Origin: a virus
Taxonomy: Duplodnaviria > Heunggongvirae > Uroviricota > Caudoviricetes
DNA length: 17,726 bases
Direction: 5' to 3' (one strand)
Virus record (IMG/VR): IMGVR_UViG_2778261034_000021
The notes beneath the pieces were generated by a model. The model saw only the letters and a list, made by a program, of their open reading frames with translations. It had not been told where the DNA came from and made no database searches. The position numbers and the translations under genes were made by a program. Numbering within the stretch: the first letter of the stretch is position 1; the number at the start of each line of letters is the position of its first letter. Shown here in pieces: positions 13,853-14,278 of this stretch.

Positions 13853-14031
13853 AATCATAATGGGTGCTTGAGGCTATCTGCCTCAGGCATGAACACCAAA
13901 AGGCAGATAGAGAAAAGCCCCAGTTAACATTACGCGTCCTGCAAGACGCTTAACATTAATCTGAGGCCCAATCTATGCTTCACAAACGTAGGTTAGCCTC
14001 TTACGCGCCGAAAGGCAAGGAGAAGCAGGCT

Positions 14032-14187
14032 ATGAAGCAGCAAAAGGCGATGTTAATCGCCCTGATCGTCATCTGTTTAACCGTCATAGTGACGGCACTG
14101 GTAACGAGGAAAGACCTCTGCGAGGTACGAATCCGAACCGGCCAGACGGAGGTCGCTGTCTTCACAGCTTACGAACCTGAGGAGTAA
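14032..14187 (+). CDS. hok: Hok/Gef-family type I toxin (51 aa) with an in-frame Mok-like upstream extension from 13975
   Basis: Translation MKQQKAMLIALIVICLTVIVTALVTRKDLCEVRIRTGQTEVAVFTAYEPEE has an N-terminal transmembrane helix and the conserved Hok C-terminal pattern. AAGGAG lies 9 nt upstream of the ATG at 14032. Confidence 0.8.
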   Translation: MKQQKAMLIALIVICLTVIVTALVTRKDLCEVRIRTGQTEVAVFTAYEPEE

Positions 14188-14255
14188 GAGACCTGGCGGG
14201 GGAGAAATCCCTCGCCACCTCTGATGTGTCAGGCATCCTCAACGCACCCGCACTT

Positions 14256-14278
14256 AACCCGCTTCGGCGGGTTTTTTG
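14256..14278 (+). terminator. Rho-independent terminator at the hok transcript 3' end
   Basis: CCCGC-TTCG-GCGGG hairpin (14258-14271) followed by a 6-T run. Confidence 0.6.

Follow-up and report, generated by a model that had tools for sequence, protein, structure and literature searches.

The stretch of DNA analysed here, referred to as the window, comprises 17,726 nt of a Caudoviricetes record (IMGVR_UViG_2778261034_000021) and belongs to a Rac-like lambdoid prophage adjoining ttcA in a Shiga-toxin-type E. coli. Its positions 1-16612 are the same as in E. coli 2011C-4251 (NZ_CP027388) except for two bases. The gene order in that genome runs intR, xisR, ralR, recT, recE, kilR, repressor region, ydaT, ydaV, followed by DUF1627, DUF977, two cargo genes, hokD, DUF1367, DUF1364 and a Q-like antiterminator; a small toxin cassette thus follows the cargo genes and precedes the late-regulator region, in what is the early-right 'moron' region of this prophage. 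The initial annotation had placed a hok/mok/sok-like type I toxin locus at 13853-14278, directly downstream of a 'cargo operon'. All of the sequence features that it described at the locus are present, and its reading of them as a hok/mok/sok-type system is supported by the analysis below (Table 1). The neighbouring operon is there as well, and its identity can now be refined to a RosmerTA (RmrT/RmrA) defence pair recognised with PADLOC; no PADLOC model matches Hok. The 83-aa ORF downstream of the cassette (14424-14675) was considered as a candidate for Rem, which follows hokD in K-12, and rejected for want of any similarity.

Table 1. Features of the hok cassette and its upstream neighbours (window coordinates; minus-strand features are given in the direction of transcription)
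Feature	Coordinates	Strand	Description
RmrT	12052-12744		Member of the RosmerTA pair upstream of the hok cassette
RmrA	12695-13852		PADLOC E = 6.4e-107; Pfam HTH_3 and Peptidase_M78
Putative hok promoter	13827-13855	+	-35 TTTATA 13827-13832, 17-nt spacer, -10 TAAAAT 13850-13855
Full-length hok mRNA unit	13862-14279	+	Runs from tac at the 5' end to the T-run of the terminator, ~418 nt
tac	13862-13873	+	GGGUGCUUGAGG; pairs with 14237-14249 in the full-length MFE
Tac-stem of the 'open' form	13862-13921	+	GGG.UGCU pairs with AGCCCC (ucb, 13915-13921)
5' metastable hairpin	13864-13890	+	GUGCUUGAGGC / GCCUCAGGCAU; contains the TGAGGC-N5-GCCTCA repeat
mok initiation region / Sok target hairpin	13963-14001	+	SD GAGG pairs with dcb GCCUC (13997-14001)
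mok reading frame	13975-14187	+	70 codons, ATG; SD GAGG 13963-13966, 8 nt upstream of the ATG
hok toxin gene	14032-14187	+	51 aa; SD AAGGAG 14017-14022
fbi	14237-14249	+	CCUCAACGCACCC; pairs with tac in the MFE
Intrinsic terminator	14256-14279	+	AACCCGC-TTCG-GCGGGTT 14256-14273, then TTTTTTG; 7-bp stem, TTCG loop
Sok promoter (by homology)	14018->13990	-	-35 TTGCCT 14018->14013, 17-nt spacer, -10 TAACCT 13995->13990
Predicted Sok RNA	13983->13907	-	~77 nt; annotated K-12 sokC and sokB ends both map there

The toxin gene encodes the peptide MKQQKAMLIALIVICLTVIVTALVTRKDLCEVRIRTGQTEVAVFTAYEPEE, whose assignment to the Hok family is borne out by the Pfam profile HOK_GEF (PF01848) with E = 1.2e-23 and 82.9 bits (cut-off 22), the full profile (1-42) being covered. 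The residues that are invariant in an alignment of six Hok proteins, including C15, R26, E31 and G37, are kept, and sequence identity amounts to 92% with HokW, 82% with HokC, 41% with R1 Hok and 35% with HokB. In RefSeq the ORF goes by the name hokD, in thousands of E. coli genomes. The Mok-like upstream extension that had been proposed to start at 13975 is likewise present in the list of open reading frames. The starts of mok and hok are 57 nt apart and the two frames are therefore in phase, such that mok overlaps all of hok and its product is an N-terminally extended Hok. The mok start aligns with that of K-12 mokC. An in-frame mok is not unusual, as K-12 mokC and hokC use one and the same stop codon and Sp5 hokW is in frame too; in plasmid R1, mok and hok are in different frames. 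The copies in phage Rac MN652886 and in P1-like elements carry one extra T (AAAGGTCAAGG) that puts mok out of frame. The mok frame is hence not conserved, which would fit a mok that acts via its translation rather than via its product.

Upstream of hok lies a highly structured leader. A covariance-model search, which had been put forward as a check on the locus, returned the Rfam family RF01794 ('sok') on the plus strand at 13862-14037 with 118.8 bits (gathering threshold 59) and E = 5e-27, covering the full model (1-157) and ending at the hok AUG. The expected match was thus obtained, but it is a match to the plus-strand leader and not to the antisense RNA itself. A control with K-12 makes this plain: RF01794 matches the hokC and hokB strand, and the annotated sokC and sokB are located on the opposite strand inside the match. 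RF01794 therefore models the sense hok leader; the match establishes that the leader of the window belongs to this family, but it does not delimit Sok and by itself is no proof of an antisense RNA, and an Rfam 'sok' match on the hok-sense strand ought not to be taken for one.

Two inverted repeats had been noted in this leader. TGAGGC (13869-13874)-N5-GCCTCA (13880-13885) is found as described and extends to 10/10 nt (13865-13874 / 13880-13889, 90% complementary), and TATCTGCC (13875-13882) / GGCAGATA (13902-13909) is present within a longer repeat. The two have a GCC(T) segment in common and are therefore mutually exclusive, i.e. they represent alternative structures rather than one static leader. 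The former is part of the 5' metastable hairpin, which accounts for 83% of the predicted ensemble of a 34-nt nascent RNA (-19.6 kcal/mol, z = -5.2). The latter is contained in the tac-stem of the 'open' form, where CUAUCUGCCU (13874-13883) pairs with AGGCAGAUAG (13901-13910); this tac/ucb stem, the first helix of the RF01794 consensus, has an energy of -28.5 kcal/mol in a 64-nt fold (z = -4.35). The third RF01794 helix corresponds to the SDmok/dcb stem, which encloses the mok AUG (local fold -14.1 kcal/mol, z = -2.4). In the full-length minimum free energy (MFE) structure the mok SD segment CUGAGGC (13961-13967) pairs instead with the ucb segment GCC.CAG (13917-13923). The terms tac, fbi, ucb and dcb are used as defined by Le Rhun et al. 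2022 (PMC9841398), and the overlap between dcb and the Sok -10 element described there for R1 recurs in the window.

The long-range pairing between the two ends of the message is supported by comparative evidence. The tac/fbi duplex is predicted at -21.5 kcal/mol (z = -3.75 against shuffled tac), and fbi is conserved or compensated in Sp5, Rac, a P1-like plasmid, Pantoea, Kluyvera, Photorhabdus and hokB; among the relatives, the 5' end finds its best partner at a constant distance of ~50 nt past the hok stop. Two-sided compensatory changes occur at at least three tac/fbi positions (Photorhabdus, Kluyvera, Enterobacillus, hokB and R1-type loci), namely in Photorhabdus, where U4->C is matched by A->G, in Kluyvera, Photorhabdus and hokB, where G12->A goes together with C->U, and in hokB and Enterobacillus, which combine U7->C with A->G. 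The respective tac and fbi sequences read GGGCGCUUGAGA and UCUCAAGCGCCC in Photorhabdus, GGGUGCUUGAGA and UCUCAACGCACCC in Kluyvera, GGGUGCCUGAG and either CUCA(U)GGCACCC or CUCAGGCGCCC in hokB and Enterobacillus, and GGCGCUU and AAGCGCC in R1-type loci. The initial annotation had allowed for a degenerate leader devoid of the conserved fold-back elements; the elements are present and they covary.

The transcription unit of the hok mRNA can be delineated with similar means. We infer that the hok promoter overlaps the end of rmrA, whose TAA stop (13850-13852) is contained in the -10 hexamer. The proposed TTTATA-17-TAAAAT matches the consensus at 9/12 positions in a consensus scan, and a TAnnAT hexamer is found equally distant from GGGTGC in hokC, hokB, Sp5 hokW, phage Rac, a P1-like plasmid and Pantoea. 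BLAST homology to other phages starts only at 13862, downstream of this promoter, and the homology with phage copies (query 163 to 576-582) spans the window from 13862 to ~14278. A further plus-strand promoter-like sequence, TTAACA-18-TATGCT (13950-13979), lies inside the leader and was treated as a chance match. The intrinsic terminator reported earlier holds up: no other terminator-like site is present in 13700-14450, and its hairpin forms in the full-length MFE structure. The same scan of 13700-14450 found no terminator between rmrA and the hok cassette. Overall, the fold of the 417-nt transcript 13862-14278 has an energy of -173.5 kcal/mol compared with -127 +/- 6.6 kcal/mol for dinucleotide shuffles (z = -7.1).

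On the opposite strand, homology points to a cis-encoded Sok gene with its own promoter facing the mok initiation region. The earlier suggestion of a minus-strand antisense RNA at roughly 13900-14030 was right as to location, since by homology this range spans both the Sok RNA and its promoter. The RNA ends were mapped by aligning the window with K-12 hokC and hokB and are probably good to ~2-3 nt; a G at 13983 lies 7 nt downstream of the Sok -10. The predicted 77-nt Sok would consist of a free 5' tail that can pair with the mok start, a long stem-loop (~13969->13914) and an GGGGCUUUUCUCU tail, and it folds at -32.2 kcal/mol (z = -5.0). Its stem-loop is ~19 nt longer than in R1, hokC and hokB, an extension that is common to Sp5, phage Rac, P1-like plasmids and Pantoea.

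The putative Sok promoter was located via homology and via the primers used for mutagenesis of sokW. A generic sigma-70 scan did not flag it, and TAACCT matches TATAAT at only 3/6 positions. The combination TTGCCT-N17-TAACCT matches the window exactly once, against a chance expectation of 0, and both hexamers are identical in Sp5 sokW. The -35 element coincides in part with the hok SD region, and the -10 element with dcb. In a set of 67 distinct leaders (Escherichia, Shigella, Kluyvera, Pseudocitrobacter, Photorhabdus, Pantoea, Buttiauxella and others), CTCCTTG(A)CC and GTAAGAGGCTAAnCT rank among the best-conserved blocks, and GTAAGAGGCTAAnCT is kept in most of the leaders. The sokW RNA has been detected by Northern blot, mutation of the sokW -10 unmasks HokW toxicity and abolishes protection, and sokW supplied in trans affords partial growth rescue (PMC8621323). 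The primers YO-421/YO-422 in that study change exactly CTAACCTA to CGAGCCGG, i.e. the sokW -10, and the Northern probe YO-592 (PMC8621323) corresponds to window 13954-13983.

Among characterised systems, hokW-sokW of Sakai prophage 5 (phage VT2-Sakai; Takada et al. 2021, PMC8621323) comes closest, its mRNA-unit DNA being 93.5% identical to the window. Both systems are prophage-borne, share the TTGCCT and TAACCT hexamers as well as tac, ucb, dcb and fbi, have mok in frame and possess the ~19-nt extension of the Sok stem-loop. They differ in the host phage (a Rac-like prophage at ttcA versus the Stx2 phage Sp5), in the flanks, with RosmerTA upstream in the window, in the Hok C-terminus (FTAYEPEE versus FVDYESEK in HokW) and at several bases of the Sok 5' tail. 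Past fbi the Sp5 sequence diverges, and the CCCGC-TTCG-GCGGG terminator of the window is missing at that position.

Aligned with K-12 hokD (relF, Qin prophage), the window has only two differences from the hok SD onwards, both in the 3' UTR, with fbi conserved; the Hok protein of the window is therefore the same as K-12 HokD. Overexpression of K-12 HokD (RelF) is toxic. In K-12, relBE takes the place of the leader ahead of the hok SD, and hokD there lacks tac, ucb, the mok start and the Sok gene and yields no RF01794 match. The K-12 systems hokC/mokC/sokC (gef) and hokB/mokB/sokB score 118 and 110 bits, respectively, with RF01794. K-12 mokC is in frame with hokC, like the mok of the window, and HokC is 82% identical; hokC and hokB are chromosomal loci outside prophages with a Sok stem-loop ~19 nt shorter than that of the window, and the hokC 3' region adjoins IS186, where the normal fbi is missing and the duplex is weak. 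In hok/sok (parB) of plasmid R1, the architecture and the order of the elements are as in the window, with the R1-type locus scoring 87 bits with RF01794, a promoter layout (TTGCGC-17-TATCCT) that corresponds to that of the window, and a predicted tac/fbi end-pairing and energetic effect of 3' truncation that are equally alike. R1 Hok, in contrast, is only 41% identical, the tac/fbi sequence differs with compensatory changes, the tac-stem loop has a longer insert and the Sok stem-loop is shorter; the R1 copy is plasmid-borne, the one in the window resides in a prophage.

Based on the R1 paradigm and the sokW experiments, a mechanism can be proposed for the window, to which the present analysis contributes sequence elements, positions, homology, covariation and predicted energetics. 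The weak promoter would give rise to the hok mRNA, in which the 5' hairpin would sequester tac during synthesis. In the finished RNA, tac would pair with fbi and the ucb box would mask the mok Shine-Dalgarno sequence, and this closed, full-length RNA would neither be translated nor bind Sok. Slow 3' trimming would take off fbi, whereupon tac would take ucb as its new partner and the SD and start of mok would enter the SDmok/dcb hairpin; ribosomes loading at mok would then produce Hok, a predicted 51-aa inner-membrane toxin, by coupling or by in-frame read-through. As long as the short, unstable Sok is made from its own promoter, it would base-pair with the trimmed mRNA at the mok initiation region, block mok/hok translation and mark the duplex for RNase III. 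Once Sok synthesis stops, be it through loss of the element, prophage induction or a shut-off of transcription, the stable mRNA pool would be translated, with membrane damage as the outcome.

The open/closed switch at the heart of this mechanism is supported energetically, though not cleanly predicted. The unconstrained MFE structure of the truncated mRNA (13862-14236) keeps the metastable 5' hairpin, and the expected open tac/ucb form is absent from it; in energetic terms, the predicted switch thus amounts to a near-tie and not to a clean flip. In place of this unconstrained fold, constrained energies were compared, with an R1-type locus as control. To impose the open form on the full-length RNA costs +13.1 kcal/mol, as against only +0.6 kcal/mol once the 3' 42 nt are deleted, and the cost in the R1-type control likewise falls upon 3' truncation, from +12.8 to +3.8 kcal/mol.

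Taken together, the locus is very probably a hok/mok/sok type I toxin-antitoxin cassette that is intact, belongs to the hokD/hokW allele group and is carried by a Rac-like lambdoid prophage. The cassette is complete but ordinary. Matches to it were found in 4729 of 5426 complete E. coli genomes (median 2, maximum 9 copies per genome), 27 of which have the exact context at 99.7% identity, and in addition in 102 phage records and 770 plasmids; these matches in thousands of genomes and the RefSeq naming as hokD mean that the locus is already known. Both of the differences from NZ_CP027388 over 16.6 kb, at 14006 and 14056, fall inside the hok locus. The C at 14006, which lies in the Sok promoter spacer and in a mok codon, occurs in none of the 66 other distinct aligned leaders and counts as a point against an intact cassette; the exact 141-nt allele of the window is also present in seven other complete genomes. 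The two differences and the shared allele suggest allele exchange among hok paralogues, and the confinement of the differences to the locus could reflect such exchange being ongoing, or else selection.

A chance origin of the ORF and hairpins in an intergenic spacer has nothing in its favour except the small size of the ORF, and with an Rfam E-value of 5e-27, a Pfam E-value of 1.2e-23, fold z-scores of -5 to -7 and thousands of homologous copies showing covariation it has been refuted and retains a vanishingly small probability; these same scores and the shuffle controls lift the initial observation far beyond chance. A degenerate or silent relic, with promoters too weak or an RNA switch that no longer functions, would be like most chromosomal hok loci of K-12, the copies there being crippled by the IS186 adjoining hokC or, in hokD, by the lack of a leader. 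The poor consensus match of the Sok -10 and the truncated RNA, whose MFE structure is not in the open form, would fit such a relic as well. Moreover, even intact chromosomal hokA, hokB and hokC are described as giving neither post-segregational killing nor activation by rifampicin, according to earlier work as cited in the introduction of bioRxiv 10.1101/2025.08.07.668861, so a complete sequence is no guarantee of activity. Against the relic stand the uninterrupted presence of the ORF, mok, both promoters, tac, ucb, dcb, fbi and the terminator, promoter hexamers that equal those of the experimentally active sokW, a toxin coding sequence that does not differ from K-12 hokD in the alignment and encodes a protein 92% identical to the toxic HokW, and an energetic behaviour like that of the R1-type control. 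On the strength of the Rfam and Pfam scores, the full set of elements and the covariation, degeneration was rejected, and we regard it as very improbable.

For an intact, active cassette, the question shifts from mechanism to biological role. Prophage maintenance, aid to lysis on induction as for hokW-sokW, and abortive infection are all candidates, between which the sequence alone is indecisive. Prophages have been described as enriched in hok (bioRxiv 10.1101/2025.08.07.668861). HokW has been shown to be toxic, and hokW-sokW to help host lysis and phage release upon induction (PMC8621323). A main role other than maintenance, either in lysis and phage release on induction or in abortive-infection defence beside RosmerTA, has a substantial claim, even if we would put it somewhat below even. 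The adjoining RosmerTA pair, with no terminator in between, speaks for it; the same survey (bioRxiv 10.1101/2025.08.07.668861), on the other hand, found no enrichment of hok beside defence systems, the Rac-like prophage is a different phage from Sp5, and nothing in the sequence tells these roles apart. The position of the rmrA stop inside the hok -10, together with the missing terminator, also gives rise to a more specific idea, that the cassette works together with the upstream defence pair, which we consider very unlikely. If it were true, read-through transcripts of rmrTA would carry a 5'-extended and differently folding hok leader, and the release of Hok would be coupled to the defence system being activated or the prophage being induced.

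As for what the intact hok/mok/sok cassette means, the discovery value is small, given that a 93.5%-identical copy, hokW-sokW, has already been characterised experimentally. The PGAP annotation covers the hok CDS only, and coordinates can now be given for the unannotated mok frame and for the predicted Sok RNA on the minus strand. With respect to the hok family, the cassette very probably represents the complete form of what K-12 hokD keeps only in a 5'-truncated state.

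Along positions 1-16612 of the window, the DNA differs from the closest complete genome, E. coli 2011C-4251 (NZ_CP027388), at only two positions, both of which lie in the hok/sok locus and no more than 51 nt apart. The difference at 14006 (C in the window, T in NZ_CP027388) alters a mok codon (Ala/Val), and the same base lies in the spacer of the predicted Sok promoter; the difference at 14056 (A in the window, G in NZ_CP027388) exchanges Ile and Val at Hok codon 9. Seven further complete E. coli genomes carry the 141-nt allele of the window that spans both (13960-14100), at 100% identity. 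Taken together, the clustering of the differences and the recurrence of the allele suggest, at the level of sequence comparison, that the hok copies, of which a genome has several, undergo gene conversion or exchange alleles with one another.

Identity to NZ_CP027388 is lost abruptly past 16612, with 846 mismatches over 16613-17726 in a comparison at fixed offset. The break falls within the match to the small RNA STnc100, just 3′ of a tRNA, and probably marks a site at which prophage variants are joined by mosaic recombination or differ by an indel. Both RNAs (16328-16664, plus strand) lie downstream of a Q-like antiterminator, an arrangement typical of lambdoid late-promoter regions.

On the other side of the locus, the initial annotation had placed a 'cargo operon' directly upstream of hok; the rmrA stop codon (TAA, 13850-13852) is enclosed by the putative hok -10 hexamer. 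A terminator scan of the rmrA-hok interval returned no terminator-like sites. Judged by its profile matches, the operon (12052-13852, plus strand) is a RosmerTA anti-phage defence pair; a Pfam search with RmrT gave no matches. The coordinates of these genes and of the other features are collected in the table.

Predicted features in the window around and beyond the hok/sok locus
Feature	Coordinates	Strand	Evidence
RalA antitoxin sRNA (RalR/RalA type I system)	1557-1735	+	Rfam full-length match, 219 bits
C4 antisense RNA	6584-6671	-	Rfam, 78 bits
isrK	6696-6772	-	Rfam, 69 bits
DicF	6999-7049	-	Rfam, 55 bits
RmrT	12052-12744	+	PADLOC E = 1.7e-18
RmrA	12695-13852	+	PADLOC E = 6.4e-107; Pfam HTH_3 + Peptidase_M78/IrrE
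Promoter-like site ATGACT-18-TATAAT	14321-14350	-	Consensus match only, 10/12
tRNA	16328-16387	+	Rfam; tRNA-Met per related genome's annotation
sRNA STnc100	16474-16664	+	Rfam, 138 bits

The window carries further small RNAs. The RalA match adjoins the place of ralR in the Rac-like prophage, and by this homology RalR/RalA forms another type I toxin-antitoxin locus of the window, besides hok/sok. Three known prophage sRNA families are clustered in the immunity/early-left region (6584-7049, minus strand). The promoter-like site in the AT-rich spacer 3′ of hok is directed back into the hok 3′ end; read on the minus strand, the hok terminator lacks a T-run. Within hok itself, the UACG context around the Hok Tyr47 codon TAC (14170-14173, plus strand) is kept in this locus.

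Among the genome-contig search matches, near-identical E. coli-type hok loci also appear under the labels of six non-E. coli taxa (a Veillonella parvula MAG, Acinetobacter idrijaensis, Xanthomonas pisi, a Ferruginibacter MAG, Streptomyces morookaense and an Oscillibacter MAG). In most cases these are very short contigs, and the labels probably stem from contamination or mis-binning rather than from real hosts. The cassette is also present, at 98% identity, in one 'Actinobacillus phage' record.

Finally, in the K-12 hokC and hokB loci the match to Rfam RF01794, the family named 'sok antitoxin (CssrC)', lies on the sense strand of hok and extends from the 5′ end of the hok mRNA to the hok AUG; the annotated sokC and sokB RNAs of K-12 lie on the other strand. 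Automated annotation based on RF01794 would put 'sok' on the wrong strand and give it about twice its proper length.
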